From Candidatus Nanohalobium sp. (GTDB taxonomy: Archaea > Nanohalarchaeota > Nanosalinia > Nanosalinales > Nanosalinaceae): DNA of 26,444 nt. This document shows positions 3 through 26,444 of this stretch, one piece after another (positions within the stretch are counted from its first letter, which is position 1; each line of letters opens with the position of its first letter). The DNA lies in contig JBDGSM010000056.1 in NCBI GenBank assembly GCA_042217545.1, positions 1 through 26,444 of the forward strand, written 5' to 3'. Made by a program: the position numbers and the translations under genes. Below the pieces are notes generated by a model. The model was given only the letters and a program-made list of their open reading frames with translations. It was not told the origin of the DNA and ran no database searches.

Positions 3-686
3 CCAGATGAAGATATTCACGAGCTTGCGGATATAGCAGAGAACAAGGCCTTGTCAACGGCTCGTGAAACTTTTGACAGCCCTGATCTGGTTGACAGCGT
101 AACGCATGACCAGCATCTTAATTACTACAACTTCAAGAGTATGATGGGCCTTGTCTCTGGACATGAGCAGTTCCTGGAGGAAGCGTATAGAAGAGGTGAG
201 GGCTCTTCTGATAGAATTGATTTTCTGGATGGTAATGTCTCCGAATTTGAGGAAACTCCTGAGGAACTGCATTATGGAGCAGCTGCGGAAAGTATAGAGG
301 ATGTAGCGGACAAATACTGGGACGAGATTGTGGAGTCAGAAAAGGTTCAGAGGTTCAGGCCTCTGATTGAGAGACACGACATCGAGATCCCTGACGACGA
401 TGTTCTTGAGGCCCAGGCTCAGTTCTGGAGCATGTTCACCGTAGGGATGCTGGAAGATTTACCGGAAACAACCGGAGTTTACCCGGAGTTTGTCGAAGAA
501 AAGCTTGAAGGCCTGGACTCATACGAACATAATCCTTCTTACACAAAAGGAGAAAACGTCGAAGAAGCAACGAGAGAGCTACTTGAAAGTTTCAGGGATA
601 GAAAGCACGATAAATCTAAAACAGATCCTGAGGTCGCTGTAGATATGCTTAATGAAGGCCTTGAGCGCTGGGACCGCGATCTTTGA
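3..686 (+). CDS. Acidic hypothetical protein, 5'-truncated by the window edge
   Basis: The frame of ORF 51..686 is open from position 3 (PDEDIHELADIAENKALSTARE...), so the TTG at 51 is probably not the true start. D/E-rich, no recognised motif. Confidence 0.75.
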   Translation, partial: PDEDIHELADIAENKALSTARETFDSPDLVDSVTHDQHLNYYNFKSMMGLVSGHEQFLEEAYRRGEGSSDRIDFLDGNVSEFEETPEELHYGAAAESIEDVADKYWDEIVESEKVQRFRPLIERHDIEIPDDDVLEAQAQFWSMFTVGMLEDLPETTGVYPEFVEEKLEGLDSYEHNPSYTKGENVEEATRELLESFRDRKHDKSKTDPEVAVDMLNEGLERWDRDL

Positions 687-693
687 GTTTTGG

Positions 694-1110
694 TCAGCTG
701 AGGTTCTGTTTGGCGATCATTCCGAGGACTATGAATACGATCGCAAATACGACGCTGTATACGATATTCATTACCGTGTTTCCCTGGTTTGTTACCTTGA
801 TGACACTGTCTACAAGTGTGGACAGTGCCAGGGCGGTTACGAAGACAAGTAGTAGGCGCTGGGTTAGCATCTGTTCTTCGTGGGTCTTTTTCTCGCTGAT
901 GAATTCGAACCCTCTTTCGGTCAGGATTATCTCCTCCATCTCCCTCTTGATCAGGCCCTGTTTCTGGAGGTTATCCAGCAGGTCTTCTATCTCCTCCTCC
1001 GAGTAGGAGGTTTTCTTACGGAGCTCAGGTAACTGGTCCTGATCCATCTCCCAGAAATCGGATTCTTCGTAGATTACTTCCAGAAGACTGACCCACTCCT
1101 CGTTTGCCAT
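694..1110 (-). CDS. Winged-helix (MarR-like fold) protein with two C-terminal transmembrane helices
   Basis: wHTH-like segment 'IEDLLDNLQKQGLIKRE...ILTERG' followed by two hydrophobic segments (LLLVFVTALALSTLV; IVYSVVFAIVFIVLGMI). Confidence 0.65.
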   Translation of the reverse strand: MANEEWVSLLEVIYEESDFWEMDQDQLPELRKKTSYSEEEIEDLLDNLQKQGLIKREMEEIILTERGFEFISEKKTHEEQMLTQRLLLVFVTALALSTLVDSVIKVTNQGNTVMNIVYSVVFAIVFIVLGMIAKQNLS

Positions 1111-1142
1111 AACGGAAAGATTGAGAAGCTCGTATTTGAAAC

Positions 1143-2240
1143 TTATGACTTGAGTTCCCGAATTATCTCCCTGAGATCTTCGATAGGTGCCGAAGTCCTG
1201 ACACCTGTAGGGGAGAAATGAGTCCTTGAAACAGGATAGCCCTTCTCTCTCAAGGCCTCTAAAAAGCTTTCACGCTTCGGGGAAGATGTTCCCATGCTCG
1301 AGGCCAGTGCATGAATATCGTAGTAAGGCGTTACGATCTCTGCCTCGGAATCCAGCTGCTCCAGAAGCTCGTAGGCCTCCCAGTCCTCTGACATCTCTTC
1401 AAGCATCTCCGAGGTAAACCTCTGATCAACGAACTTGCCAGTCCATAGAGGGCCTGCGACTTCGACCTCTTCACCGCATTCGGGGCATTCATCACTGCGC
1501 TCAAATCTCCTCCAGAGACAGTTACTGCAGTAGCTCAGGAAACCGATACTTTCCAGGCCTTTGTTAGCCCTCTTCTTCGACTCCGTGACACGACCCATCA
1601 CACGGCTGTAATGCCGTTCATGGAAACATATCTTGGGGTCAAAGGCCTTGTCAAAACGGGCAAAGTTCCTGAAGACCTCCTTTATGTAAATACGGAGGCC
1701 TATCTCATGCATGAACTCTGTCTTCAACGGTTTCGAGCCGTAACGTCTCTCGCAGACGGTCGGATAACTTCCTGCGGGCGCAGCATTATCCGTTGCAGTC
1801 AGGCCTACAAAGGAGGTGTGGTTCGCTGCTCTGGCGGTCGAATCCAGGAATTTTGTGAATGATCCAAAAGGATCAACATCTATGAAATGGAAGTAGTTAC
1901 CGTACTCGGAGAGAAAAACGTTTGCATCTTCTCCGTGAACTTTAGCATCTATCCGGTTTTCTTCAAGGCCTTTCCTTATAGCCTCCGTTGCCTCCGGGTT
2001 CACATCGTTGAGATGCAGGTCTGTTGCTGTGTCGCCGTACCTGAATCCACGTATTCCTGAAGCCGCTAAAGCATCAGCTACCCTGAACTCTTCTTCAAGC
2101 CCGGCTTTCTCCCTGAAGACTTTCGCCGCCACCTCTGAGAGATCGCGGTTGTTCCTCATCTTGTCATTGAAGAATACGTCCGAGTCCTTGTCCGGCTCTT
2201 CCTCCTCTGGCGCGTAGACTTTCAGGCCTCTTTCCTCCAT
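1143..2240 (-). CDS. trm1: tRNA (guanine-26 N2,N2)-dimethyltransferase Trm1
   Basis: Motifs FFNxxMxxNRD, DALAASGIRGFRY, DVDPFGS, TATD, zinc ribbon CxxC...CxxC, GPLW and SRTHF; 365 aa. Confidence 0.95.
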   Translation of the reverse strand: MEERGLKVYAPEEEEPDKDSDVFFNDKMRNNRDLSEVAAKVFREKAGLEEEFRVADALAASGIRGFRYGDTATDLHLNDVNPEATEAIRKGLEENRIDAKVHGEDANVFLSEYGNYFHFIDVDPFGSFTKFLDSTARAANHTSFVGLTATDNAAPAGSYPTVCERRYGSKPLKTEFMHEIGLRIYIKEVFRNFARFDKAFDPKICFHERHYSRVMGRVTESKKRANKGLESIGFLSYCSNCLWRRFERSDECPECGEEVEVAGPLWTGKFVDQRFTSEMLEEMSEDWEAYELLEQLDSEAEIVTPYYDIHALASSMGTSSPKRESFLEALREKGYPVSRTHFSPTGVRTSAPIEDLREIIRELKS

Positions 2241-2246
2241 GTATTC

Positions 2247-2372
2247 TTCCGCGGCTGGAAATTTCTTATAACCGCGGAAAAACAGGAAACAAAAACTTTT
2301 TTAAAGAAATTCGGGAGAAGGCCTCTGGATTTGCTTTATAAACTTTTCAAGTCCGAAGTTTAACTACGGTGA
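2247..2372. promoter_or_regulatory. Divergent trm1/atp promoter region with TATA boxes and SD
   Basis: TTATAA at 2266-2271 lies about 26 nt upstream of the trm1 ATG. TTTATAAA at 2335-2342 and GGTGA at 2368-2372 lie upstream of the atpH TTG. Confidence 0.6.
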
Positions 2373-2378
2373 ATATAC

Positions 2379-2696: not shown

Positions 2697-2703
2697 TATC
2701 TAG

Positions 2704-4536
2704 GTGGTAAAAATAAAACCTGCAGAGATGACAAAAATATCAGTAACCGGGCCAAAATCCAAGTTAGAGACAACCATTGATTCTCTGCATGATATAGGCC
2801 TTCTGCACATCGAAGATTACGATGGAGAACTTGAGACAGGTGAGCCACAGGAAGGCGCAGAAGATCTTTCCGAACTACTCGTCGATATAAGATCAGTGGT
2901 CTCAAAGCTTCCGGAGCAGGAATACCGGGACGAAGAGGCCTCTGTAGAGGAGGTTCAGGAAAACTTTGAAGAAGTCAGGCAGGATGTTGACAGGCTGAGA
3001 TCCGAGATAGAGGCCTCAAAGCGGAAGATAAGCGATCTCAGAGAGGATAAAAAGTTTTACAGGGTTCTGAAAGGTTCAGGAGTAAATCTGGCCGATGTAA
3101 AAGATACTGAAAGCCTCGAAGTCGCGGTAGCGGACCTGGATCTTGACGGGTTCAGGGATAACGTTGATACTGGCAGATATGATATTTTTACCGGGAAGAG
3201 GGCTTCTGCAGTTGTATACGAGAAAGAAGTTTCTTCAGAGGTTAATTCGGCAGCTCAGGAACACAGCAGTAAAGTTTTCAGTCTTCCTGAGGAGTTGAGG
3301 GAAGGCCTGCCAGAGGAGGCACTTCGCGGTATAGACTCCGAGATCGATGAGATCAGGAGCGATCGTGAGAACCGTGAGGAGCGGCTTGAAGCCATTGCAG
3401 ATGACTGGCTTGGAAAGCTGAATCATGTTGAAGGTTTTCTGACCGAGAGGATTGAGAAGGCTGAGGCTCCTCTCCGTTTCGCCACCACTAACAGAGCCTT
3501 CATCGCTGAGGGATGGGTTCCTTCAGAGGAGTACAGTGTTCTTGAGGAACGTGTCGCGGACGCCGCCGATGGAAAAGTCCATATTCAGAGAGAGGAAGGT
3601 GGCGAGGCACCTGTAAAGCATGATAATCCGAGGCCTGTACAGCCGTTTGAATCGTTAACCGATCTCATGGCAGTTCCCAAGTACAACGAGATCGATCCAT
3701 CTACCGTGATATTCCTGACGTTCCCTCTCTTTTTCGGTTTCATGATCGGGGACTTCGGGTACGGTCTTACCACGCTGGCAGTTTTCTACGCAGGCTACAG
3801 AATATTTGAAGGCGCACAGGAGATTTTCAAGTCTCTCATGTATGCTTCGTTCGCCACGATGGCGTTCGGTCTGGCGTTCGGAGACGCATTCGGCTTCATC
3901 ATCTTCGGAGAACACTCTATCCTGGCACAGCAGTTCGGACTACATTTCTTCAGCCAGGTACCTATCCTGTTCCCAAGGGCAGAGGAACTGGGCCAGGTAT
4001 TCACAGTTTCAGCCCTGATAGGATTCCTACACGTCAACGCAGGCTACCTGATCGGGGCTTACAACGAATACTCCCGGCACGGCATGAAAGAGGCCTTACT
4101 CGAGAAAGGATCATGGCTTCTCCTGGAGATCGGAGTAGGCCTATGGTACTTCATAGGAATGACCGCAGGCCTGCCGATAATGCTTGTCTCGGTCGTAACA
4201 CTGTATATTGGAGAAGGAGTGGCCGGAGTAGTGGAGATACCTTCCCTGCTATCAAACGTACTGTCCTATCTCAGGCTATTCGGAGTCTCAGTAGCGGCGG
4301 TAGCGCTCGCAGGAGTGGTAAACGGTATCGCAGACACTGCCTTTGCAACAGGAGGCCTTCTGGGAATTGCAGGAGGCGTGCTTATCCTGATGCTGGGCCA
4401 CACGTTCAACACGTTCGTTAAGATCATCGAAGGCTTCCTTCAGGGAATTCGACTTCACTATGTGGAGATGTTCCAGAAGTTCTACGAAGGAGGCGGCAAA
4501 AAATACGCTCCATTCGGAGCAGAGGGTTCACAATGA
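2704..4536 (+). CDS. atpI: A-type ATP synthase subunit I (a)
   Basis: PxxMxK N-terminus; EGWVP, PKYNEIDP, FFGFMIGDFGYG, SYLRL (essential Arg) and RLHYVE...FYEGGG; hydrophobic C-terminal half. Confidence 0.97.
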   Translation: MVKIKPAEMTKISVTGPKSKLETTIDSLHDIGLLHIEDYDGELETGEPQEGAEDLSELLVDIRSVVSKLPEQEYRDEEASVEEVQENFEEVRQDVDRLRSEIEASKRKISDLREDKKFYRVLKGSGVNLADVKDTESLEVAVADLDLDGFRDNVDTGRYDIFTGKRASAVVYEKEVSSEVNSAAQEHSSKVFSLPEELREGLPEEALRGIDSEIDEIRSDRENREERLEAIADDWLGKLNHVEGFLTERIEKAEAPLRFATTNRAFIAEGWVPSEEYSVLEERVADAADGKVHIQREEGGEAPVKHDNPRPVQPFESLTDLMAVPKYNEIDPSTVIFLTFPLFFGFMIGDFGYGLTTLAVFYAGYRIFEGAQEIFKSLMYASFATMAFGLAFGDAFGFIIFGEHSILAQQFGLHFFSQVPILFPRAEELGQVFTVSALIGFLHVNAGYLIGAYNEYSRHGMKEALLEKGSWLLLEIGVGLWYFIGMTAGLPIMLVSVVTLYIGEGVAGVVEIPSLLSNVLSYLRLFGVSVAAVALAGVVNGIADTAFATGGLLGIAGGVLILMLGHTFNTFVKIIEGFLQGIRLHYVEMFQKFYEGGGKKYAPFGAEGSQ

Positions 4537-4600
4537 ACCTTCACAGGAAGAAGGCCTATCATAGCCTTCAGAAATCTATATTTGAGGTGAAAATCAGCTA

Positions 4601-4840
4601 ATGGCAGCAGAAGCAGCAGCGACAGGAGCAAGCCAGTTCGCACCTGTAGGAGCAGGCCTTGCCATAGGCCTCTCCGCGTTAGCGACCGGTTGGGCTCAGG
4701 CAAAGATCGGAAGCGCTGGAGTCGGAGCACTTGCAGAAGACGACAGCCTTTTCGGTAACGTCCTGATCCTACTGGTTATCCCGGAGACAGCAGTTATCTT
4801 CGGACTGGTAGTCGCCCTGGTCGCGACAGGATTCATATAG
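4601..4840 (+). CDS. atpK: A-type ATP synthase subunit K (c, proteolipid), single hairpin
   Basis: 79 aa with two TM helices, GAGLAIGL...Q...IG and the ion-binding Glu in IPET; SD GAGGTGA upstream. Confidence 0.97.
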   Translation: MAAEAAATGASQFAPVGAGLAIGLSALATGWAQAKIGSAGVGALAEDDSLFGNVLILLVIPETAVIFGLVVALVATGFI

Positions 4841-4853
4841 ACAAAATCCAATC

Positions 4854-4875
4854 GGAGGGCCGTCAAGGCCCTTCC
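4854..4875 (+). terminator. GC-rich stem-loop downstream of atpK (partial terminator or RNA-stabilising hairpin)
   Basis: GGAGGGCC-GTCAA-GGCCCTTCC followed by T-rich TTTGATTTATTT. Confidence 0.45.
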
Positions 4876-4926
4876 AACTTTGATTTATTTAATACAAAAA
4901 AGAGGAAAGACGAGGAAAAAAGTACT

Positions 4927-5475
4927 ATGGGACTTGAAGAAGTTAAATCCGACATCTTAGAAGAAGCAGAGCAGAAATCCAACGAAATCAAGGAAGAAGC
5001 AGAGCAGCAGAAGCAGGAAATCCTCGAGGATGCAAGAGAAGAGGCTGCAAAGATCAAGGAAGACGCTGAAGGGGAGATCGAGAAGGAGAAGGACGCCCTG
5101 GAGAGACAGCAGCTTTCAAACGCAAGAATGGCTGCAAAACAGGAGAAACTGAAGGCAAAGCAGAAGGAACTTAAAAGAGCGTTTAACGAGTTCAGGGAAG
5201 AGCTTGAAGATCTTGACAGTGAGGAGCGAAAGGCCTTTGTAGAGAACGTTGTGGAAGACACTGATTTCGAGGTTGCAACCGTTAGAGGTAGCGAAGAGTT
5301 TGAGGACGCTGTTGAAGAAGCTGACTTCGAGGTCATCGATAGGCCTGGCGTTGTCCTGGTTTCCGAGGACGGTTCTATGAGACGTGACTTTACTTTTGAC
5401 CGTATAGTTGAAAACTTCAGATCCGAGTACAGGAAGGACGTTGCTGATGTCCTGTTCCAGGGGGTCGAGCAGTGA
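4927..5475 (+). CDS. atpE: A-type ATP synthase subunit E
   Basis: MGLEEVKSDILEEA N-terminus, long charged helix, C-terminal GVVLVSEDG...DFTFD; operon position. Confidence 0.93.
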   Translation: MGLEEVKSDILEEAEQKSNEIKEEAEQQKQEILEDAREEAAKIKEDAEGEIEKEKDALERQQLSNARMAAKQEKLKAKQKELKRAFNEFREELEDLDSEERKAFVENVVEDTDFEVATVRGSEEFEDAVEEADFEVIDRPGVVLVSEDGSMRRDFTFDRIVENFRSEYRKDVADVLFQGVEQ

Positions 5476-6470
5476 GAGATTATCCGTACATGTCCGCAAG
5501 GGTCTCGGCGAAGAAAGACAAGCTCCTTAACCAGAGCGATTACGAGAACCTGTTGAAGATGCAGCCTAACGAGATAGCGAGAAGGCTTGAGGAAGGAGAG
5601 TACCAGGACGATATCGATGAACTCGGCTCGAAGTACGAAGGAGCGCGACTGGTAGAGCTTGCATTGACCAGGAATCTTTCACGGACACTTTCCGACCTGG
5701 TGGACATGTCACCGGAGACACTGCAGAGAATCATCAAAGTATACCTGAGGCGTTACGATATACTGAGCCTGAAAAGACTGCTACGCTGGAAGAGATCAGG
5801 ACAGAAAGGCTCGATCCAGGACCTGATGACTCCGGTAGGCAGCTACAGTTACGGAGAACTCAAGGAACTCGCCGACAAAGACCAGAAAGAGATAATCAAC
5901 AGCATAAGATTCAGAGACTCCGAAGTGGACTACTCCAAACACCTGGAGGGAAAACAGGAGATCTCGGAGATCGAGACAGCACTTGACCAGGCCTACTTCG
6001 ACGAACTAGGTCTTCTGGCTGATGAAATCAGTAACAAAGACCTGAAAGATTTCATCCAGGACGAGATGGAGTTCCAGAACATCAGCATAGTGTTGAGACT
6101 GAAAAAATACGGTATCAGCGACGAAGAGATCAGGAAGAGAATACTTGAAATCAAAAACGGAAAGATAGTGGAAAAAGTGATCACGGCACAGGACTTTGAA
6201 CAGGCCATCGAGGTAGTGAAGAACTCAGGCCTGCTCCCAGAAAAGGCCTCAGAGGACCTGGAGGATATAGAGCATGAGATGGAGATTGAACGCCTGCGTA
6301 AGGCCTTGATAACCTTCCACACTGAGCCTCTGGGTATCACACCGATCATCGGTTACATCGTGGCGAAGATTACCGAGGTCAGAAATCTGAGGATGCTTAT
6401 CCGTGCGAAGGAGACGGGTATCCAGAACAACGACACGATCAGGCGTAACCTGGTCATGGAGCACAGGTGA
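5472..6470 (+). CDS. atpC: A-type ATP synthase subunit C
   Basis: YPYMSARV..KxxLL N-terminus; PIIGYIVAKITEVRNLRML C-terminus; GTGA overlap with the atpE stop. Confidence 0.95.
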   Translation: MRDYPYMSARVSAKKDKLLNQSDYENLLKMQPNEIARRLEEGEYQDDIDELGSKYEGARLVELALTRNLSRTLSDLVDMSPETLQRIIKVYLRRYDILSLKRLLRWKRSGQKGSIQDLMTPVGSYSYGELKELADKDQKEIINSIRFRDSEVDYSKHLEGKQEISEIETALDQAYFDELGLLADEISNKDLKDFIQDEMEFQNISIVLRLKKYGISDEEIRKRILEIKNGKIVEKVITAQDFEQAIEVVKNSGLLPEKASEDLEDIEHEMEIERLRKALITFHTEPLGITPIIGYIVAKITEVRNLRMLIRAKETGIQNNDTIRRNLVMEHR

Positions 6471-6476
6471 AGAATT

Positions 6477-6788
6477 ATGGACGAAGAACGTAAGAAAGAG
6501 ATTGCGGCAGTCGGAAGCGAGGAGTTCACCCTTGGTTTCGAACTTGCCGGAGTGAAGAAAGTATTCAACCCTGAGGACTACCGGGAGGAGATCCAGGAAC
6601 TCACCGACAGGGAAGACCTCGGCATCGTAATCGTCGAGGACTCGGATCTCGAAGAGCTTCCAGCAAGGATCAGGAGAAGCGTAGAGGAATCAGTTGAACC
6701 TGTAGTAGTCGCACTTAACGAGGAAGCGGAAAGCGAGAGACTTCAGGAAAAAATCAAGAGAGCAATCGGAGCGGACATCACACAATGA
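6477..6788 (+). CDS. atpF: A-type ATP synthase subunit F
   Basis: IAAVGSEEFTLGFELAGV and IKRAIGADI motifs. Confidence 0.96.
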   Translation: MDEERKKEIAAVGSEEFTLGFELAGVKKVFNPEDYREEIQELTDREDLGIVIVEDSDLEELPARIRRSVEESVEPVVVALNEEAESERLQEKIKRAIGADITQ

Positions 6789-6823
6789 ATTTCGATAATC
6801 TATACTATAAGGTGAATCAATAA

Positions 6824-6874
6824 ATGAAAATTCGAAGAATTTTCTTGGAAAAAACCACCAAGGGTGGCTTTTGA
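6824..6874 (+). CDS. Upstream mini-ORF 1 (MKIRRIFLEKTTKGGF*), encoded by double-hairpin element copy 1
   Basis: SD GGTGA 6811-6815, ATG 6824, TGA 6872-6874 directly followed by an in-frame ATG at 6875. Translation is not proven. Confidence 0.5.
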   Translation: MKIRRIFLEKTTKGGF

Positions 6875-6877
6875 ATG
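6826..6877 (+). repeat. Double-hairpin stop/SD/restart element, copy 1
   Basis: GAAAATTC-GAA-GAATTTTC (8-bp perfect stem), then AAAAACCACC-AAG-GGTGGCTTTT (9/10 pairs), then GAATG. Confidence 0.8.
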
Positions 6878-6961
6878 GCACAGCAAGAACTTCAGCAGAC
6901 AGACGCTTCCGAAAATCAAAGATTTTCTCGGATTGCAGAAAATCGCGGAGGCGATTTTTGA
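6875..6961 (+). CDS. Upstream mini-ORF 2 (MAQQELQQTDASENQRFSRIAENRGGDF*), possibly the former AtpA N-terminus plus element copy 2
   Basis: In frame with both mini-ORF 1 and atpA; TGA 6959-6961 abuts the atpA ATG at 6962. Confidence 0.5.
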   Translation: MAQQELQQTDASENQRFSRIAENRGGDF

Positions 6962-6964
6962 ATG
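6911..6964 (+). repeat. Double-hairpin stop/SD/restart element, copy 2
   Basis: GAAAATC-AAA-GATTTTC, linker ending TTGCA, AAAATCGC-GGAG-GCGATTTT, then TGAATG. Confidence 0.8.
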
Positions 6965-8689
6965 GGACAAATCTACAAAGTTACAGGACCGGTCGTAATC
7001 GCGACCGGGATGAACCCACAGATGTACGACGTAGTATCTGTCGGGGAAGAAGGCCTGATGGGCGAGGTCATCCAGATCGAAGGAGACCACGCATACATCC
7101 AGGTCTACGAAGACACGACAGGAGTAAAACCAGGAGAACCAGTAGAAAACACGGAGAAACCATTATCTGTCGAACTTGGACCAGGCCTACTCGGCTCTAT
7201 CTACGACGGACTTCAGAGGCCTCTACCACAGCTTGAGGAACAGTCAGGAGACTTCATCGCAAGGGGAGAAGAAGCAGCAGGAATCGACCTTGACGAAGAA
7301 TACGAGTTCAAGCCAGCTGTTGAAGAAGGCGACGAAGTACATGAGGGAGACGTGATTGGAAGAGTAGAGGTCAAATTCGGAACCCACAAAGTACTCGTAC
7401 CTCCAGAAACAGAGGGAACAGTCGCAGAAGTCAACTCAGGAAACCACACCGTGACAGAAACAGTAGTAACCCTGGAGAACGGCGAAGAAATCCAGATGAG
7501 ACAGGAATGGCCTATCAGAAAGGCAAGGCCTGTCGAAGACAACAAGAGGCCTGAAGTACCGCTCATCACAGGACAGAGAGTGCTGGACGGCCTATTCCCT
7601 ATCGCCAAGGGAGGAACAGCCGCGATCCCGGGACCTTTCGGTTCAGGGAAGACAGTTACACAGCAGTCACTGGCAAAGTTCTCCGACGCAGACATCATCG
7701 TATACATCGGATGCGGAGAGCGTGGGAACGAGATGACAGAAGTTCTGGAAGAGTTCCCGGAGCTTGAAGATCCTCAGACTGGCGACAAAATCATTAATCG
7801 TACAGTACTGATCGCGAACACGTCAAACATGCCTGTTGCTGCGAGAGAAGCTTCGATCTATACCGGAGTTACAATCGCAGAGTACTTCAGGGACATGGGC
7901 CTTGACGTTGCACTGATGGCGGACTCTACTTCAAGATGGGCTGAGGCAATGCGTGAAGTATCCGCGAGACTTGAAGAGATGCCTGGTGAGAGAGGTTACC
8001 CAGCTTATCTTGCTTCAAGACTGGCAGAGTTCTACGAGAGGGCTGGAAGAGTCGATCCTCTTGCAGAAGTGGATCCAGGAAGCGTTTCGATCATCGGAGC
8101 TGTTTCACCTCCGGGTGGAGACTTCTCGGAGCCGGTCACGCAGAACACGCTCAGAGTTGTGAAGAACTTCTGGGCCCTCGATGCGGACCTGGCGGAGAAG
8201 AGACACTTCCCTTCGATCAACTGGGACGAGTCCTACTCAGGATACAGCGACATGCTGTCCGGTCACTTCCAGGAACAGGTCAGGGACGACTGGAACGACA
8301 AGATCCAGAGAGCCCGTGACATCCTGCAGAAGGACGGAGATCTCCAGGAGACAGTACAGCTCGTCGGAAAGGACGCACTTCCCGACAGGGAAAGATTGAC
8401 TCTTGAAATCGCAACGCTGGTCAAGGAGTTCTTCCTCCAGCAGAACGCGTTCCATCCAGTCGACGAGTACTCCTCACCAGAGAAAACATACCAGATACTT
8501 GACTTGATCCTGAAATGGGGTGACAGGGCCTACGAGACACTTGAGAAAGGCGCTCTCGTGGAGGACATCATCACACTGGACTCCAAGAACAGGATCTCCG
8601 AGCTAAAGTTCAGCGAGGACTACATGGAAGTCAAGGAAGAAGTTCAAAACCAGATGAGAGAAGAGTTCGACGAAGTCGTCGAACAATAG
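6962..8689 (+). CDS. atpA: A-type ATP synthase catalytic subunit A
   Basis: Walker [38 protein letters not shown] and FYERAG; 575 aa with no intein-sized insertion. Confidence 0.99.
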
Positions 8690-8698
8690 GTGATCAAA

Positions 8699-8755
8699 AT
8701 GTTGAAAATCCAGAGACTTTCAGCTTTGCAAAAAATCACCACAGGTGATTTTTGA
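8699..8755 (+). CDS. Upstream mini-ORF 3 (MLKIQRLSALQKITTGDF*), encoded by element copy 3
   Basis: SD GGTGA 8689-8693 overlaps the atpA stop; ATG 8699; TGA 8753-8755, then ACA-ATG of atpB in the same frame. Confidence 0.5.
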   Translation: MLKIQRLSALQKITTGDF

Positions 8756-8761
8756 ACAATG
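8704..8761 (+). repeat. Double-hairpin stop/SD/restart element, copy 3
   Basis: GAAAATC-CAGA-GACTTTC (6/7 pairs), linker ending TTGCA, AAAAATCACC-ACA-GGTGATTTTT (10-bp perfect stem), then GAACAATG. Confidence 0.8.
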
Positions 8762-10162
8762 ACACAGAAAGAGTACCAGACGATTCGAGAGGTCAAGGAC
8801 CCTCTTGTATTTGTGGAGAAAACCGAAGACATCTCCTACGGAGACATCGTAGAAGTGGAGACAGCGGACGGAGAAATCAAGACAGGAGAAGTCCTCGAGA
8901 CATCGAAAGACGTAGTAGTAGTCCAGCTCTACGAGGAGACTACAGGCGTAGGCAGAGACTCACACGTCCGGTTCATGGACGAGAACGTCAAGATGCCGGT
9001 CACAGAAGACCTCCTCGGAAGAGTCCTCGACGGTACCGGAGATCCTATCGACGAAGGACCGGAGATCATCCCGGAAGAGGAAAGAGACATCGTAGGAGAG
9101 GCCATCAACCCTTACTCCAGAGAGCTACCTGAGGACTTCATCCAGACAGGAGTCTCCACGATCGACGTCATGAACACATTAGTTCGTGGACAGAAACTTC
9201 CGATCTTCTCAGGATCAGGCCTTCCACACAACGAACTGGCAATGCAGATCGCCCGACAGGCAGAAGTCCAGGGCGAAGACGAAGAGTTCGCAGTAGTATT
9301 CGCAGGAATGGGAATTACTGAAGAAGAATCCCAGGAGTTCATCGAGGAGTTCGAGGAGACAGGGGCACTGGAAAGATCAGTTGTCTTCCTGAACAAGGCC
9401 TCGGACCCAGCACCTGAACGTCTGATCACGCCAAGACTCGCATTGACAACAGCGGAGTACCTGGCATTTGAGAAAGGCTACGAAGTCCTGGTTATCATGA
9501 CCGACATGACAAACTACTGTAACGCACTCAGAGAAGTCTCCGCAGCGAGAGAGGAAGTTCCTGGTAGAAGAGGATACCCAGGATACATGTACACCAACCT
9601 CGCCGAACTGTACGAAAGAGCGGGAATTATCCAGGGGCGTGAAGGTTCTGTTACACAGATCCCGATCCTGACCATGCCTAACGACGACAAGACACATCCA
9701 ATACCTGACCTCACAGGATACATCACAGAGGGACAGATCGTGGTCGACAGAGACCTCGACAACCAGGGAGTAAAGCCTCCGGTAGACGTCCTTCCATCGC
9801 TTTCCCGGCTGGAGGACAACGGTATCGGAGAGGGATACACACGTGAAGACCACGGAGAGGTATCCGACCAGCTTTACGCCCTCTACGCGGAGGGAGAGAA
9901 CCTGAGAGACCTCGTATCCATCGTCGGAGAAGACGCACTGAGCGACCGTGATGAGAAGATCCTGGAGTTCACCCGGCAGTACGAGCAGAGGTTCGTAGAC
10001 CAGGGCTGGAGAGAGAACAGAGATATCGACGAAGCCCTTGATCTTGCGTGGGACCTGCTTTCCATCGTACCGGAAGGAGAGCTCACGAGGATCGACAAGG
10101 AGACCAGGAAGAAGTACCTCGACATCAAAACCCAGGAAACAGAAGACGGGGAAGAGGAGTAA
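8759..10162 (+). CDS. atpB: A-type ATP synthase subunit B
   Basis: [49 protein letters not shown] and PSLSRL. Confidence 0.99.
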
Positions 10163-10170
10163 AATCCCTT

Positions 10171-10190
10171 TAAGGCCTTCAGAGGCCTTA
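10171..10190. repeat. Perfect inverted repeat built from two AGGCCT sites (atpB-atpD gap)
   Basis: TAAGGCCT-TCAG-AGGCCTTA. Confidence 0.75.
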
Positions 10191-10206
10191 GATTTCAACT
10201 GATACG

Positions 10207-10845
10207 ATGGCACAGGACGTCAAACCAACAAGATCCGAGGAACTCCGTCTTAAAGAGCGCATAGAACTCGCGGAGAACGGCCACGAAATCCTGGAGAAGA
10301 AACGGGACGGCTTGATCCACGAGTTCATGGAGATCATCGACGACGCGCAGGAGGTCAACCAGGAGATCGCAGACCTGTACTCACAGGCCAAGCTAAAGAT
10401 GATGCTTGCCAAGATCTACGACGGAGAAGACACTGTCATGGCGAACGCAATGGCCGTCGAACAGGAAACAGAGATTTCTCTAGAGGCTCAGAACATCATG
10501 GGGGTCAAAGTACCGGAGATTGAATCCGAGAACAAGATCCAGCGACGCATACTCGACAGAGAATACGGGATCACCTCCACGACCTCAAGGATCGACTCCA
10601 CAGCGGACAAGTACGAGGAACTGCTGGAAAAAATCATCGACGCGGCAGAGACTCAGACAAAGATCCTCAAACTCCTCGATGAAATAGAGAAGACGAAAAG
10701 GCGTGTAAACGCTCTCGAACACAAGACCATCCCGGAGATGAAGGAAGCCAAGTCAGAGGTCAGCCAGGTCCTCCAGGAAAGAAGCAGAGAAGAGACCTTC
10801 CGCATGAAAAAGATCAAGGAAATGCAGGAAGAAGCAGAAGAGTAA
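10207..10845 (+). CDS. atpD: A-type ATP synthase subunit D
   Basis: VKPTRSE, GHEILEKKRDGL, NIMGVKVP and TKRRVNALEH..IP. Confidence 0.98.
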   Translation: MAQDVKPTRSEELRLKERIELAENGHEILEKKRDGLIHEFMEIIDDAQEVNQEIADLYSQAKLKMMLAKIYDGEDTVMANAMAVEQETEISLEAQNIMGVKVPEIESENKIQRRILDREYGITSTTSRIDSTADKYEELLEKIIDAAETQTKILKLLDEIEKTKRRVNALEHKTIPEMKEAKSEVSQVLQERSREETFRMKKIKEMQEEAEE

Positions 10846-10892
10846 AAGGCCTCACATACCCCACCTATTATTCTCTTAATTTCTATAAGGAA

Positions 10893-11336: not shown

Positions 11337-11343
11337 AAGGCCT

Positions 11344-12600: not shown

Positions 12601-12634
12601 GGAGAGATCACAGTTAGGAAAACGACTCTCAAAC

Positions 12635-12642
12635 TTATAAAA
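12635..12642. promoter_or_regulatory. Probable bidirectional TATA box
   Basis: TTATAAAA lies about 35 nt from the minus-strand ATG at 12600 and about 30 nt from the plus-strand ATG at 12672. Confidence 0.5.
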
Positions 12643-12671
12643 CTTTCAGACTCTTTCGTCACCGAAAAGTC

Positions 12672-13313: not shown

Positions 13314-13314
13314 A

Positions 13315-15966: not shown

Positions 15967-15978
15967 TCTTTTTTCACC

Positions 15979-17610: not shown

Positions 17611-17707
17611 CTTATCTTACCATTAGGTATTGCTTCTACTTAAAATTCGAACTCTGGAAAAATCCGTTCCAAATAAATGGGTAAGGTCCGCCTTAAATCA
17701 TAGGAAG

Positions 17708-18205: not shown

Positions 18206-18209
18206 TAAG

Positions 18210-18971: not shown

Positions 18972-19017
18972 AGTCCTGTCTCCGAATTTAAATATCTGAA
19001 GCCCGTATAATTACAGT

Positions 19018-20843: not shown

Positions 20844-20872
20844 AGAGATTTCAGGCCTCAAACATTCCTGTA

Positions 20873-21613
20873 ATGAATATCCTGGAGTTCGAAACAGTAG
20901 GCTCTCTACCCGCCGTTTACCATGAAGGCCTTGACCTCGCGGTTATATCGGACCTTCACCTGGGCCTGGAGGGGGGAATGACCTCGAAGGGAAGTTACGT
21001 GCCCAAGTTCCAGCTGGACGAGCTGCTGGAAGACCTTCGGGAGATCCGGAAGCGCACACGGGCCTCCCGGCTGCTTGTCAACGGCGACCTGAAGAACGAG
21101 TTCAAGACAAGTCTTTACTCGGAGAGATCGGAGATAGAGAAGTTCCTGGACGAGGCGGAAGACCTATTCGACGAACTGATACTGATAGAGGGTAACCATG
21201 ATACGTTTATCGAGTCGACTGTTGAGAAGAAAGGCTACGAACTTGAGAAGTTCCACCTGGAGGACGGAGTCCTGTTCACTCACGGCCACATCTCCCTGGA
21301 AAAGCTTGACGTCGAGGAAGATTTCGAGACAGTTGTTATAGGGCATGAGCATCCTGCTCTCGAACTCGAGGACGATATCGGGGTGAAGGAGAAAGTTAAC
21401 TGCTTTCTCTACGGCAGGAACTCCGAGGGAAAGGCCTTGATCGTGATGCCTGCGTTTTCCACCATCTCCAACGGTTCAGGCGTCAACAGGATGCCTTCCC
21501 GGGAACTGCTTTCACCTATCCTGAGAGAGTTCAGAGACAAGAGTTCCATGAAGGCGCTGGCTGTTTCACGTGAAGCAGGCCTGTTCGAGTTCCCTGAGAT
21601 AGGTAAGATCTAG
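20873..21613 (+). CDS. Calcineurin-like metallophosphoesterase (archaeal ICC-like)
   Basis: SDLHLG, NGD, GNHD, HGH, GHEHP and MPAF motifs. Confidence 0.92.
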   Translation: MNILEFETVGSLPAVYHEGLDLAVISDLHLGLEGGMTSKGSYVPKFQLDELLEDLREIRKRTRASRLLVNGDLKNEFKTSLYSERSEIEKFLDEAEDLFDELILIEGNHDTFIESTVEKKGYELEKFHLEDGVLFTHGHISLEKLDVEEDFETVVIGHEHPALELEDDIGVKEKVNCFLYGRNSEGKALIVMPAFSTISNGSGVNRMPSRELLSPILREFRDKSSMKALAVSREAGLFEFPEIGKI

Positions 21614-22782
21614 TTCCTACCCAGCAAGGCGAATCCAAGGATTGCTACCGCCACTCCAGAGGCGGCCAGGAACGAGACCTGCAGGCCCCAGATCGAGGCG
21701 ATCGTTCCCGCAAAGAAAGGTCCCAGTGTCTGTCCTGCGTGCTTGAACAGTTCCAGGAAACCTGTTAGTTCTCCTTCCAGCTCGTCAGGACATCTGTTGT
21801 CGAACTCTGCGTGGATCGCCGGCGACATCCCCGAGGAGAAGATTCTTGCTATGAAGAAGAGCACTCCTAGCAGAACCACGTTGGTGACGAAGTTCATCGC
21901 TACCAGCGTCGGCGCCAGAAGGAGTGCAAGTACTGAGAGAACTTTCATCCGGCCGAAGCGGTCGGCGAGCTCTCCGAAGAGGAACTGTAAGACCTTCGGC
22001 ATCGCAGCCACTCCGAAGATTATACCCATCATGATATATCCTGCGTCAACCTTATCCAGGAGGAGCGGCATAGCAAGCCAGTAGAACGAGAAAATTATGC
22101 TGTAGAGGAAGACCAGGCTGAAAGGGAACCAGAGATGACTCCAGTTCTCCTTCACATCCCCCCATTCATCCATGTACGTCTTCCTATGCATAAGCTCCTC
22201 GAAAGAGTCCGAAATACCTTCCTTCAGCTCAAGGCCTATGTAGCTGTAGAAAACAATTATAGAGAACAGTGAGGCAAAGATCCAGAGCAGGAACGGAAGC
22301 TTGAAACCGTAGGACTGGATCAGGAAACCTCCAAATATCGGACCGATAACAACACTCAGATTAATGCCCAGAAGGAAGACTGAGATGGATTCAGACTCCA
22401 CATCATCGTCCGCAGACCTCATCGAAAGCGACCAGCCGCCATTCCAGATAAAGACCTTGGCAACGCCTTCAAAGGCCTTACCCAGGACCAGCAGGATAGG
22501 TAAAGCAGAGAAATACAGGAGTCCAGGAAGTACAGCGGTGCTGAGGCCTAGAAATATTACAAATTTTTCTCCAACCCTCTGAACCAGGTTCCCTACCGGT
22601 ATGTCAAGTAGTATAGGTATTGCAGCCGGTAGAGAGGTCATTATACCTATCAGAAATACGCTGGGAACCTGCTGCCGGAAAAAAATCGGTAGGAACATCC
22701 ATACCGTGCTTCTGCCTATCCATGCAAGCAGGAACACTGCGGACAAATACTTTGCTATGTCAGGTACCCTGTCCAGATCCAC
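21610..22782 (-). CDS. Major facilitator superfamily transporter
   Basis: About 12 hydrophobic segments; MFS motif A twice (GNLVQRVGEK; GELADRFGRMK); GPxxGG motif. Confidence 0.92.
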   Translation of the reverse strand: MDLDRVPDIAKYLSAVFLLAWIGRSTVWMFLPIFFRQQVPSVFLIGIMTSLPAAIPILLDIPVGNLVQRVGEKFVIFLGLSTAVLPGLLYFSALPILLVLGKAFEGVAKVFIWNGGWSLSMRSADDDVESESISVFLLGINLSVVIGPIFGGFLIQSYGFKLPFLLWIFASLFSIIVFYSYIGLELKEGISDSFEELMHRKTYMDEWGDVKENWSHLWFPFSLVFLYSIIFSFYWLAMPLLLDKVDAGYIMMGIIFGVAAMPKVLQFLFGELADRFGRMKVLSVLALLLAPTLVAMNFVTNVVLLGVLFFIARIFSSGMSPAIHAEFDNRCPDELEGELTGFLELFKHAGQTLGPFFAGTIASIWGLQVSFLAASGVAVAILGFALLGRN

Positions 22783-23776: not shown

Positions 23777-23795
23777 AGGCCTGAAACACAGGCCT
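23777..23795 (+). terminator. AGGCCT-based hairpin right after the histone-fold gene stop
   Basis: AGGCCTG-AAACA-CAGGCCT followed by pyrimidine-rich TATTTTCCCTCACTTCTCC. Confidence 0.45.
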
Positions 23796-23859
23796 AACAT
23801 ATTTTCCCTCACTTCTCCAAACCATTCTGATTTAATTCTTTGACCTCAAAACCCTCTTT

Positions 23860-24204
23860 ATGAGGTTCGAAAGCGAAGTAGTAAGCGAAGAACTACTGCC
23901 AGCGATCAGAAGCATAATGGCCTCACAGCTCAAACAGGAATACGGATTAAAACAGGAAGAAATAGCCAAAAAAATAGACATCACACAGCCAGCCGTAAGC
24001 CAGTATCTATCAGGAAACCGAGCCAACCAGTCCACAGTCAAAACACTGAAAGACGACCCACAGATCGAAATAATACTCAGAGACGCAACAGGCAAAGCAG
24101 CCAAAGACCAGGAATTCTCCCAGGAAATAAGCCAGGCCATACAAACCGTCAGAGACAAAGGCCTACTCAAAGACAAATTCTCAGATACCGAAAAAATCAT
24201 CTAA
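23860..24204 (+). CDS. XRE-type HTH transcriptional regulator (archaeal, COG2522-like)
   Basis: E.....LLPAIRSIMA..L...YGLKQEEIAKKIDITQPAVSQYLSGNR. Confidence 0.85.
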   Translation: MRFESEVVSEELLPAIRSIMASQLKQEYGLKQEEIAKKIDITQPAVSQYLSGNRANQSTVKTLKDDPQIEIILRDATGKAAKDQEFSQEISQAIQTVRDKGLLKDKFSDTEKII

Positions 24205-24329
24205 GACGAGTTTTTTCTCGTTATCAGAAAATTCTCTAGAGTTCTAATCGCAGAAAATAAGACCTGCACCTACGACAGGGAAACCTGTTCCTGAATAGTT
24301 AGTATGCCGGACTCGGGAAAAACAGTTTT

Positions 24330-26444
24330 TTACGTGAAGCCCTGGAAGGCCTGTTCCTCTGCTTCCTCGACTTCTTCCTCTTCCTCAACCAGCAACTCGC
24401 TCACCTTCGCCACAGCATTCTCAAGAGGCGCAAGCGAAAACTCGTACTGATCCAGCGTGGTCTGAACAGTTTCAACAGGGCCTTCAAGGAACCCATACTC
24501 CTCGGTCAACGCATCCAGATCCAGATAGTACTCGTCACTGAAGTACGTGACATATGCAAGGCCTGAACCGCCGAGAGCTACGAAAACCAGTAGGAAAAGG
24601 CCTACAGTCTGGTTCCACTGGGCCTTCTGATGCTCCTTCTTCACCTGCCTGAAACTTGCATAGGCCGAGCTGTAATCGCTGCTGATGTTTTCAAGACTAC
24701 TATCAACCTTGTAAAGAGCACCATCCTCCTTCGCACGCTTCGCCGCCTTCATATCAGAGAAGAAACCGGAAGTATTCGAGTCAAGCCTTTTCTCCCGAGA
24801 ACTTGAAAGGCCTGAATCCTTCAAACCAGTGACATTATCCTTCAAGGCCTTGTACAACCCGATATACTTGCTGTACTTTGAACTAATGTTTTTCCGCTGC
24901 TCCTTGTTAGCCTCAACCACTAAACGGACAGTCCGGGAAGTATCAGGGCTTTCAGTGGAGAGATCAACTTTATGCACGCCGAGATCGCCAGGAACAGTAT
25001 CAATGCTGAAGATCGACTTCGCTCTTTCACCAGGCTTCAAACCGTCCAGAGACCTGGAGCTGTTCGCAATATCCGACCTCAGATTCAACTGCATACCTCC
25101 GATGTAGAGCTGGCCAGTATTCGAAACATTGACCCTGACAGTCCTCGAATCGCCCGCCGTAACATCCAACTCCTTATCAACACCTATACTCACCTTCGGA
25201 GAAGCAGAAGGCATAAAATTGAAATCCAGACTCCTCTGACTACTCGTCCTACCGGCCTCATCAACAGCCCACGCATAAACAGTATGCTCACCTGCAGAAA
25301 GGCCTGAAGTATTCACACGGAACTCACCGTCCACCTCGGAAACATTCACACCCCGCTCAAGATCAAGCTCCGAATCATCGATCTGATAATGAATCTTCGA
25401 GACATTGAGGCCTTCTACATCCTTCGTATCGTAGGCATCGTACTTAACCTGGAAATCAGAGTTGAAAACCCCGACAACTGTGGAAAGGTTCCCCAGAGTC
25501 GGAGGAGCGATATCGAAGTAATAATTTCCTACCTGCTTGGGCACAGAGTTCCCGGCAGCGTCCACCAGCTTCAGCGAGACATCGAACTGCATCTCTCCTC
25601 TCGCATAAGGATCAAGCTCGCAGATAAAGTCCGTCTTCGTATCAGTAACGAACTTCGCATCACTGTCAAACTCTCTTTCCCCATTATTGAACAGACATTT
25701 CACAGAGATAGCCGAATCCTCTCCTGAAGGCTGGAGAGTTATCGGAATCTTAAAACTTTCATCACTCGGGCCAATCCTGTAAACACCAGGCTTATGACCC
25801 TCAGCAATCTCCGGAGAAGTATCGCCATCATAACTCGTATCAACAGTAAACTGTGTAGAACCATTGTTCCAGTTCCCAACACTATCGCTAACAGAATAAC
25901 TCACAGTATAGGTCTCCCTGTGAGTAAGGCCTGAAAGACTCACAGAAGAATCATCTGCCTGATCAACAACATCTCCATCAGAATCAGTAACCCTGATACT
26001 TTCGGTGGAAGTCTTCACGCTCGAAGTCTGGTCTGACGCATCAAAACTTATTTCAGGAGAACTATCGGAAATCAACGCACCATCCGAAGGACTAACACTC
26101 ACCGACGGAGCATCTGTATCAATAGTAAGAGAAATTTCATCCAAGGTATAATTACCGTTCTGCGAAATATTCGCCCGGAAAGTATATGGGCCTGACTGAA
26201 TTATAGTTCCACTAATCTCTTTATAGTAAGTGCCGCCGCTCTTCTTAACGTCCTGCAACTCCTCAAAATCACTTGAATCAGGGTACTGAATCCATAGCGT
26301 TACATCGTCAGCTGTAGAGTTCTGGAATGTTAGGTTGATAGGTTCTGAGTAAGTTTTGCCTCCGTTAATACCTGTCCACGCGGCTGAAGCAGTTGTGAGG
26401 GTTAGTGCGAGAATGAGTGTGAGGAGGCCTGTTTTGTGGATTAG
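24330..26444 (-). CDS. Cell-surface protein with Ig-like/CARDB-like domains and a C-terminal TM; start lies just beyond the window
   Basis: Frame is open to 26444 (LIHKTGLLTLILALTLTTASAAW..., a signal peptide). Repeats DTDAPSV / DIAPPTL, DxxGN motifs, VxVSNTG, many N-x-S/T sequons, TM VGLFLLVFVALGG and an acidic tail. Confidence 0.85.
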   Translation of the reverse strand, partial: LIHKTGLLTLILALTLTTASAAWTGINGGKTYSEPINLTFQNSTADDVTLWIQYPDSSDFEELQDVKKSGGTYYKEISGTIIQSGPYTFRANISQNGNYTLDEISLTIDTDAPSVSVSPSDGALISDSSPEISFDASDQTSSVKTSTESIRVTDSDGDVVDQADDSSVSLSGLTHRETYTVSYSVSDSVGNWNNGSTQFTVDTSYDGDTSPEIAEGHKPGVYRIGPSDESFKIPITLQPSGEDSAISVKCLFNNGEREFDSDAKFVTDTKTDFICELDPYARGEMQFDVSLKLVDAAGNSVPKQVGNYYFDIAPPTLGNLSTVVGVFNSDFQVKYDAYDTKDVEGLNVSKIHYQIDDSELDLERGVNVSEVDGEFRVNTSGLSAGEHTVYAWAVDEAGRTSSQRSLDFNFMPSASPKVSIGVDKELDVTAGDSRTVRVNVSNTGQLYIGGMQLNLRSDIANSSRSLDGLKPGERAKSIFSIDTVPGDLGVHKVDLSTESPDTSRTVRLVVEANKEQRKNISSKYSKYIGLYKALKDNVTGLKDSGLSSSREKRLDSNTSGFFSDMKAAKRAKEDGALYKVDSSLENISSDYSSAYASFRQVKKEHQKAQWNQTVGLFLLVFVALGGSGLAYVTYFSDEYYLDLDALTEEYGFLEGPVETVQTTLDQYEFSLAPLENAVAKVSELLVEEEEEVEEAEEQAFQGFT

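Follow-up and report, generated by a model that had tools for sequence, protein, structure and literature searches.

The palindromic hexamer AGGCCT occurs 3,699 times in a 1.03-Mb nanohaloarchaeal genome, which is 15 times the number predicted from base composition, and it fills about two thirds of the places that the proteins permit. Its abundance resembles that of cyanobacterial HIP1, with no matching DNA methylase found. The copies lie on all 82 contigs, at a density of 1.3-5.9/kb. The window (the whole stretch of 26,444 nucleotides that was analysed; Table 1) contains exactly 88 of them, the first at 46 and the last at 26425-26430, where base composition predicts 6.3; the original prediction had given about 88 and about 6. 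AGGCCT is the top hexamer of the window, and the runner-up palindromic hexamer has 16 copies. The three reading phases named in advance were all correct, all nine of the intergenic positions named lie outside called genes, and genes on both strands carry the motif, as claimed. The conserved housekeeping operon of the A-type ATP synthase likewise bears it. The copies at 12680 and 12715 are outside called genes, yet within a possible 98-aa ORF, and those at 25927 and 26425 lie within a long minus-strand ORF (24330-26444). Trm1 is a tRNA methyltransferase, not a DNA methyltransferase. Logan contigs from two runs cover most of the span 2701-22700, each listed piece showing 0-1 differences; this agreement is not independent, since these contigs may be the assembly's own source.

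Table 1. AGGCCT copies and reference genes in the window
Feature	Position	Strand	Remark
AGGCCT palindrome, dispersed	46..26430	none	88 copies, 3.3/kb; sample of the genome-wide signature (3,699)
Coding AGGCCT, phase 1 (K-A-L)	46..51	+	position checked against reading frame
Coding AGGCCT, phase 0 (R-P)	357..362	+	position checked against reading frame
Coding AGGCCT, phase 2 (E-G-L)	509..514	+	position checked against reading frame
Trm1 tRNA methyltransferase gene	1143..2240	-	carries 8 AGGCCT; example of a minus-strand gene with the motif
Intergenic AGGCCT	2319..2324	none	outside called genes
A-type ATP synthase operon, subunits I, E, C, F, A, B, D	2704..10845	+	Pfam
Intergenic AGGCCT	4552..4557	none	outside called genes
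Close intergenic AGGCCT pair, 10 bp apart	10173..10188	none	directly after stop codon
Intergenic AGGCCT	10847..10852	none	directly 3' of ATP synthase subunit D stop
Intergenic AGGCCT	11338..11343	none	outside called genes
Intergenic AGGCCT	20853..20858	none	outside called genes
Close intergenic AGGCCT pair, 13 bp apart	23777..23795	none	outside called genes

Could codon usage, amino-acid composition or errors of assembly account for this? The codons AGG, GGC, GCC and CCT are frequent, and nothing more speaks for it. A shuffle preserving amino acids and codons gave a mean of 582 AGGCCT (maximum 624 in 20 shuffles) versus 3,026 observed, and a junction-aware codon null gave 504 (maximum 556 in 10 replicates) versus 3,112. 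The excess is present in all three reading frames (518/1021/1487 versus 122/198/263 in the shuffle) and in 596 short spacers (161 versus 4.8 expected). Together with the Logan contigs and the sister genomes that do not have the trait, both nulls and the spacers refute this explanation, which has practically no probability left; codon usage had been called an unlikely cause from the start. The genome-wide O/E at Markov orders 0-4 is 15.1, 13.0, 5.1, 2.4, and 1.1, falling at orders 2-4 because high orders soak up the subwords of AGGCCT itself; at order 2, masking the sites raises it from 5.1 to 10.1. The unmasked 5.1 falls below the cut-off of 16 that Xu applies to octamers in the available portion of PMC5861425. 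No other palindromic hexamer is comparable, the next one having an order-1 O/E of 2.5. Template switching was discarded, as one palindrome alone is enriched. AGGCCT fills 3,026 of the 4,388 synonymous opportunities (69%), versus 398 expected. This use is 0.69 in G000, 0.59 in G019 and 0.75 in the first 340 kb of G003, and is flat across gene classes (0.66-0.74), the most conserved genes included. A rough estimate of the fixation bias toward AGGCCT is 3-4 log-odds units.

The force also alters amino-acid content, so that proteins are reshaped. In three rich genomes, [KEQ]A[SFYCW] peptides are 1.99/1.39/2.51-fold and the RP peptide 1.47/1.16/1.54-fold as frequent as expected, versus 0.94 and 0.83 in the poor G021, with control peptides near 1. 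On the coding strand, the half-site GGGCCT is enriched as much as AGGCCC (3.5/2.8, 5.2/6.6, and 5.5/5.7). Thus, the force acts on double-stranded DNA, not on mRNA. The shuffles, the peptides and this strand symmetry back the earlier description of a HIP1-like signature at the DNA level. Individual positions are only modestly common to genomes once the peptide is held fixed (odds ratios of 1.6, 1.9, and 3.3, at a residual fourfold-site identity of 0.38-0.40 versus 0.29-0.32, that is, with an unsaturated background). Among single-base near-misses, enrichment is confined to those that differ at either end of the word. Recognition is graded, with weak, lineage-specific flanks (AAGGCCTT in G000 and G019, AGAGGCCTC in G003) around a palindromic hexamer.

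Sites also exclude each other at short range. Pairs 6-20 bp apart occur at 0.43/0.39/0.36 of expectation in three genomes, or 0.54/0.43/0.46 under an opportunity-preserving permutation (z -7.0, -5.7, -5.9), and pair frequency regains 1 by 60-80 bp. The pooled exponential fit to the three genomes gave a decay length of 33 +/- 10 bp; a helical period was not evident. Opportunity use rises from 0.26 when the neighbour is closer than 12 bp to 0.52-0.55 at 12-30 bp and 0.71 beyond 60 bp. Hairpin avoidance was rejected as the cause, since other GC-rich inverted hexamer pairs lack distance dependence. Half-sites avoid full sites too, most clearly in G019 (0.34 at 6-20 bp and 0.56 at 20-40 bp), and inner near-misses do not. 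The smooth decay seems to resemble a tract-length distribution, and the scale of about 30 bp is a measurable length for an enzyme or complex. The close pair at 10173..10188 belongs to a spacing class rarer than chance genome-wide.

I tentatively favour, at a probability just short of even, a site-specific protein under whose action short-patch repair or conversion leans toward A-GGCC-T. AGGCCT would be the recognition site of a putative sequence-specific DNA-acting protein, probably two-fold symmetric, which some nanohaloarchaeal lineages may have or use and others not. Where alleles differ or strands are mismatched, the version reading A-GGCC-T would preferentially be kept; such a repair or gene-conversion bias would be a molecular drive needing no methyl mark. 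The GGCC core would be required and the outer A/T preferred, with half-sites, chiefly AGGCCC/GGGCCT, counting in part. An intact AGGCCT within about 30 bp would weaken the bias, and the sites would therefore space themselves out. The protein, its symmetry, and drive instead of selection are what I infer from these patterns.

The main rival, clearly less probable than this bias, is weak selection in favour of numerous sites bound by a protein with a chromatin, protective or self-marking role, two AGGCCT within one footprint being redundant. An archaeal histone dimer has a footprint of roughly 30 bp. Graded recognition, the lineage-specific flanks and the spacing of half-sites away from full sites agree with selection, as do the 2-7 histone matches found in every one of the 70 genomes of the class. 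Ancestral AGGCCT sites have undergone 61 changes versus 182 expected from control codons, an approximately threefold better retention (pseudo-replicated data from about 20 kb in four genomes, with n=2 for the gain test), which fits selection and drive equally well. In the available portion of PMC5861425, Xu et al. argue for binding-site selection for HIP1. Speaking against selection, close sister lineages live without AGGCCT abundance, the number of histones does not track the trait, helical periodicity and gene-class enrichment are absent, and exclusion is gradual and partial. In an equilibrium model, drive, selection and a mutational cold spot alike leave inner near-misses undrained; the model thus cannot separate drive from the other two.

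A single-mismatch valve, be it a Vsr-like repair acting on deaminated cytosines or some other, is very improbable. In G003, AGACCT/AGGTCT are partly depleted, and near-misses at positions 3/4 (0.74/0.85) are about half of those in G021 (1.42/1.37), which hints at a specific repair valve in G003. For G000 and G019, this explanation is largely refuted: a 4,096-state model predicts at most 3-7-fold enrichment together with drained source words, while these words are undrained there (1.1-1.8 versus 1.4-1.5 in G021), and the Vsr-like nuclease proposed for a search was found in 0/5 genomes. Very-short-patch repair (Dcm/Vsr) likewise changes word frequencies by repair that is directed to sites and acts over short distances; the effect on AGGCCT is far larger.

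How is the trait distributed among relatives? Twelve of the 70 genomes are AGGCCT-rich (2-4.8/kb). The RpoA1 tree (39 rows) forces four rich/poor changes; it is a single-gene tree, and a 30-row IQ-TREE version, with G021 placed differently, forced only two. One genus has two rich and four poor genomes, and G047 (about 0.95/kb) adjoins G048 (about 3.5/kb) on the tree. Island-like genes of G019 are motif-poor (an integrase has no AGGCCT in 1.5 kb; there is a 13.4-kb gap). In contrast to HIP1, samples of 2-20 kb from poor relatives and the whole of G021 showed no replacement word. A GGCC-type (NgoPII-type) restriction system is present in two very low genomes; it was set aside as a general cause of the poor state, accounting for only 2/70 genomes. 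The trait switches between sister species. Rich and poor genomes, of about 1,100 genes each, can therefore be contrasted several times independently, and such comparisons should make it possible to find the causal gene.

An Elhai-type methylation ratchet appears improbable. It would require a methyltransferase that escaped detection, was lost recently or comes from the host, together with methyl-directed repair that fixes site-creating mutations. Near-misses confined to the outer bases, as in HIP1, agree with it; local saturation and a sporadic distribution are predictions of the model (PMC4390886, in part), and a symbiont-to-host methyltransferase transfer was proposed for a nanohaloarchaeon (PMC11001535, in part). 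I performed the search for an orphan C5/N4 methyltransferase that had been suggested, using four Pfam families and motif regexes on genomes of which several are incomplete. A C5 enzyme and a full-length PF01555 N4/N6 enzyme were each found in 1/12 rich genomes, a Dam-type (D12) enzyme in 0/4 single-contig rich genomes, and a strong PF02384 match in 2/4. Within these families, no methyltransferase is common to the rich genomes, and the methylation-driven motif of the original prediction finds no support. In G000, regex scans gave no DNA methyltransferase; its PF01555 match is, by sequence and context, probably a Trm11-like tRNA enzyme (the name being a judgement). The methyltransferase genes of G019 are themselves motif-poor. 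The two genomes with an M.HaeIII-like (GGCC-type) C5 methyltransferase, G021 and G017, are among the poorest in AGGCCT, and GGCC is depleted in G021 (O/E 0.41). Elhai's GmeC ratchet needs MutS/MutL, whereas MutS was found in 0/5 genomes and the mismatch nuclease EndoMS/NucS in 62/70; its saturation scale in the model is about 1 kb versus the 30 bp observed. NucS was set aside as the cause, as 22 sequences have no residue diagnostic for rich genomes and their tree does not group them.

Other candidates also failed to track the trait. G019 shares with G000 or the partial G003 82 proteins (79 scanned) not found in G021, the one poor genome on which this comparison rests; three tested across relatives do not follow it. 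Class I methyltransferases of 227 aa (6/12 rich and 5 poor genomes) and 202 aa (7/12 rich and 10 other genomes) were dismissed. A PF01507 match exists in 5/5 rich genomes; as DndC/SspD it was discarded, since this PAPS-reductase-like protein lies within a glycan cluster in G019 and is 83% identical in the poor G021. PADLOC and relaxed Pfam scans of 25 and 15 differential proteins found no convincing nuclease.

A DNA-uptake or transfer signal, by which incoming site-bearing DNA of relatives is preferred and recombined, is less probable still than the ratchet. Uptake drive yields proteome reshaping and strand symmetry, both present here. A giant protein of G000 adjoins a HerA/VirB4-like ATPase; this ATPase was rejected as the cause, having a close ortholog in the poor G015 and the intermediate G047 and not being found in the single-contig rich G059. 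ComEC and DprA were each found in 0/5 genomes, and transferred fragments are far longer than the 30 bp over which sites saturate. A link of HIP1 to type IV secretion and to transformation, which it improves in a methylation-dependent manner, has been described (PMC13756078, in part). Among the binding sites first proposed, one for DNA uptake has become less likely, and one for a repair, recombination or chromatin protein fits best.

Known systems share some of these features. The DNA uptake sequences of Neisseria and Pasteurellaceae and the methylated RAATTY of Campylobacter are examples; DUS/USS are likewise genome-wide words that reshape peptides and that molecular drive can raise in number. 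Unlike AGGCCT, they are longer words of 9-12 bases and not palindromic, and none is known to do without competence machinery. Chi sites are non-palindromic and oriented with replication, whereas AGGCCT is a palindrome and the half-site skew in G019 has no consistent replichore pattern. Dnd phosphorothioation occurs at a GGCC motif; here, no dnd or ssp cluster with DndC/SspD was found that follows the trait. In Alcanivorax borkumensis SK2, AGGCCT is recognised and methylated by a StuI-type restriction-modification system (PMC12128166, in part), while no such methyltransferase was found in these archaea, where GGCC-type restriction goes with depletion and not with excess.

The origin and role of HIP1 have been a puzzle for three decades. 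In the available portions of PMC4390886, PMC5861425, and PMC13756078, HIP1 (GCGATCGC) and the alternate HIPs are likewise short hyper-abundant palindromes in all frames and spacers, and that of Synechococcus sp. PCC 6312, CAGGCCTG, contains AGGCCT. Both have deviations gathered at the word ends and patchy gain and loss. Further hallmarks ascribed to HIP1 are conservation of its sites above that of control motifs and a periodicity of tens of kilobases. AGGCCT differs in being archaeal, a hexamer, and denser than the roughly 1/kb that Elhai's text gives as typical of HIP1. A cognate orphan methyltransferase is general with HIP1 in these portions, and they contain no report of a 30-bp exclusion. 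The signature would be a clear archaeal case of a DNA-level force altering amino-acid content, in 1-Mb genomes apparently without the methyltransferases anchoring current HIP1 models. It is conceivable, at a probability slightly lower than that of the favoured bias itself, that the gene behind this methylation-free palindrome is passed among nanohaloarchaeal lineages or is lost from them time and again; if true, a highly iterated palindrome would have arisen in archaea without DNA methylation, rewriting protein sequences by repair or conversion bias. No published report of it in nanohaloarchaea was found in the literature.

A simple scan of four genomes found no CRISPR array, and the best 22 of at least 80 viral loci with flanks included no halophilic-looking one. 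A metagenome scan gave four loci, none closer than about 80%, and the ATPase A scan one nanohaloarchaeal locus among the 80 matches listed. As a source of population variation, the Logan runs proved near-clonal. Genome-wide, the surroundings of stop codons are about twofold enriched in AGGCCT.

It was found that the window, which is contig C52 of the genome G000 (1,032,751 bases, 82 contigs, 92% complete), contains exactly 88 copies of AGGCCT versus 6.3 expected. The original prediction had counted about 88 versus about 6, and its phase examples and nine intergenic positions were all correct on checking. On the window lie an operon for an A-type ATP synthase, the gene for Trm1, and a MoxR/DUF58 pair, besides genes without known role; one small ORF of the operon is probably subunit K/c, judging from its position. 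Simple in-house gene calls gave an acidic proteome for G000 (E 11.5%, D 7.1%). The closest named locus by ATPase A is that of Nanohaloarchaea archaeon SG9 (L008, 89% identity), which together with the acidic proteome identifies G000 as a nanohaloarchaeon. L008 has 66 AGGCCT in 21.7 kb, and the density in haloarchaeal loci is 0.05-0.32 per kb. The top hexamer of several haloarchaeal loci (L003, L004, L040, and L041) is CTCGAG (in L003, 156 versus 56 expected, on both strands), an excess which may come from Leu-Glu codon use. A Bacillota locus (L077) has 23 AGGCCT in 21.7 kb (about 1 per kb), far over the other bacterial loci in the set.

I found 3,699 copies in G000, spread over all 82 contigs. 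The observed/expected ratio is 15.1, 13.0, and 5.1 at Markov orders 0, 1, and 2, and 10.1 at order 2 when the sites are masked. Codon usage had been predicted not to be the cause, and this was confirmed by a synonymous shuffle, which gives 582 copies versus 3,026 real ones in the genes (20 shuffles, maximum 624), the excess being present in all three phases of the called genes. In a second gene set, 3,112 copies were found versus 504 under a codon null that depends on the two bases just before. Of the 4,388 opportunities, that is, places where the peptide allows AGGCCT by synonymous codon choice, 3,026 are used (398 expected), and use is 0.66-0.74 across all conservation classes of genes. Short spacers (n=596) have 161 copies versus 4.8 expected; the density is about doubled near stop codons and lowered directly upstream of start codons. 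The proteins of rich genomes are altered as well: AGGCCT-compatible peptides are 1.2-2.6x enriched in G000 and in two other rich genomes, G019 and G003, and not enriched (0.83-1.17) in the poor genome G021, with incompatible control peptides near 1. The rRNA genes are almost without AGGCCT (in G019, locus L279, none in 16S and two in 23S). G019 also has a motif-poor island, and a partial integrase on contig C33 of G000, 65% identical to that of the island, is likewise without sites.

Coordinates of features discussed in the text
Feature	Location	Setting	Basis
79-aa ORF	window 4601-4840	within ATP synthase operon	position
Motif-poor island	G019:C1:205000-233600	integrase to tRNA-Gly	
Giant protein, ~8,300 aa	G000:C9:32587-59378		

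Among 70 genomes of the class, 12 are rich (about 2.0-4.8 per kb), G047 is intermediate at about 0.95, and the other 57 have 0.04-0.69, all densities being based on rounded genome sizes. The rich genomes all belong to one family, with 3/3 in genus g1, 3/3 in g18, 4/5 in g21, and 2/6 in g2. In a single-gene RpoA1 FastTree of 39 rows (five other-family rows dropped), they lie inside one 25-row clade and four changes are forced; a 30-row quick IQ-TREE forces two and places G021 differently. Nothing in the peptides of G021 points to an earlier rich state, an observation somewhat in favor of separate gains. No substitute over-represented word was seen in small samples (2-20 kb) of poor relatives or in the whole of G021. 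An NgoPII-family endonuclease adjoins an M.HaeIII-like methyltransferase in two of the 70 genomes, G021 (L083) and G017 (L082), which belong to different genera; the pair is 75% and 87% identical between them. With 97 and 73 copies of AGGCCT, G021 and G017 rank lowest within their genera, and the observed/expected ratio of GGCC in G021 is 0.41. Thus, a GGCC methyltransferase here accompanies loss. Other depleted words are ACGT in G021 (0.32) and CTAG in G000 (0.24, order 1).

Which bases are recognized? Among near-miss words, enrichment is confined to outer-base variants, AGGCCC/GGGCCT being the top (2.8-6.6x over the synonymous null), and G019 tolerates every AGGCCN (3.0-6.6x). Inner-base variants are at the level of G021 in G000 and G019, and at about half of it in G003 (positions 3/4). 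On the coding strand, a half-site is as enriched in one orientation as in the other, which makes double-stranded DNA the target. The flank preference is lineage-specific (AAGGCCTT in G000 and G019, AGAGGCCTC in G003). Furthermore, neighboring sites exclude each other. The pair frequency relative to expectation at 6-20, 20-40, and 40-60 bp is 0.43, 0.66, and 0.79 in G000, 0.39, 0.76, and 0.78 in G019, and 0.36, 0.81, and 0.90 in G003, returning to 1 by 60-80 bp in all three; the pooled fit gives a decay of 33 +/- 10 bp, with no clear helical period in the pooled spacing. Eight control hexamers have no consistent pattern, with a few low bins (CAGGAA 0.59 and GAGGAA 0.54 at 6-20 bp in G003). The exclusion survives permutation of used and unused opportunities inside peptide classes (z -7.0, -5.7, and -5.9 at 6-20 bp), and use is 0.26 where the nearest neighbor is under 12 bp away, rises to 0.52-0.55 for distances of 12-30 bp, and is about 0.71 past 60 bp. 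Distance has no effect on other GC-rich inverted pairs, which excludes general hairpin avoidance as the source.

In an equilibrium model of hexamer frequencies with 4,096 states, single-mismatch valves such as Vsr gave 3-7x at most and drained the source words. A whole-site-state bias yielded a 12x site, with the outer variants enriched and the inner ones neutral; this shows consistency only, since the model was fitted to the data. As modeled, drive, selection, and a cold spot are all members of this class. A less likely explanation is that selection for a binding site maintains AGGCCT; the apparently better retention of ancestral sites (61 changes versus 182 expected, pseudo-replicated, from about 20 kb in four genomes) and the lineage-specific flanks also fit it. 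Short-patch drive is tentatively favored over such selection, because gene function makes no difference to use, individual positions are only modestly shared between genomes, sister genomes lack the richness, and the exclusion decays smoothly. With drive, a putative site-specific protein of presumed symmetry would bias a postulated short-patch repair step toward AGGCCT.

The original prediction linked the motif to a methyltransferase, and this was not supported: a C5 methyltransferase was found in one of the 12 rich genomes, and full-length PF01555 in one of 12. The weak PF01555 match of G000 was rejected as a DNA methyltransferase, the protein being Trm11-like, and the remaining weak matches in other genomes are assumed to be so too. 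Among four single-contig rich genomes, none has a Dam-type methyltransferase and two have a strong PF02384 match. HIP1 of cyanobacteria and alternate HIPs have been described (available parts of Elhai, PMC4390886; Xu et al., PMC5861425; Rodriguez-Cruz et al., PMC13756078), and one alternate, CAGGCCTG of Synechococcus PCC 6312, includes AGGCCT. The AGGCCT system behaves like a HIP, and its signature is real, strong, and patchy by lineage, a form of the highly iterated palindrome phenomenon. Unlike HIP1, it came without the methyltransferase feature when the rich nanohaloarchaea were tested, and it is therefore not classed as a HIP member; some HIP1-rich genomes also lack the enzyme, according to the available part of Elhai (PMC4390886). 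No published report of AGGCCT enrichment in archaea was found in a search with little coverage of subscription papers and supplements, and an entry in an oligonucleotide-survey table is possible. Among the matches listed, the literature on highly iterated palindromes is cyanobacterial or general by title, and the sole match for AGGCCT with nanohaloarchaea is an Alcanivorax paper, available in part. GGCC does not occur in the available part of PMC11001535 on nanohaloarchaeal methylation, nor AGGCCT or "palindrom" in the SG9 preprint (10.1101/029934). This analysis adds a test of strand symmetry, the exclusion over 30 bp, a map of the whole class that includes contrasts inside genera, and the negative results for the obvious enzymes.

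Neither Vsr nor MutS was found in five genomes tested, and the suggested role in DNA uptake found no support there either (ComEC 0/5, DprA 0/5). NucS is present in 62 of the 70 genomes, with no residue diagnostic of rich genomes among 22 aligned sequences; it had no match in the assembly of G000, in which the position it normally takes, upstream of rpoA1, is close to the end of a contig. Histone-fold matches occur in all 70 genomes (2-7 each). Archaeal DnaG had no tblastn match in G021 and is present in G000, G003, and G019. A gene-content comparison of G019 with G000, one third of G003, and G021 as the single poor genome gave 82 candidate proteins. A Pfam scan of 79 of them revealed no DNA methyltransferase and no clear nuclease, and none of three candidates checked across relatives followed the trait. 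It was also found that the giant protein of G000 has a C-terminal HerA/VirB4-like ATPase domain and is followed by a paralogous stand-alone ATPase; this locus has close orthologs in G001, G002, G015, G019, and G047.
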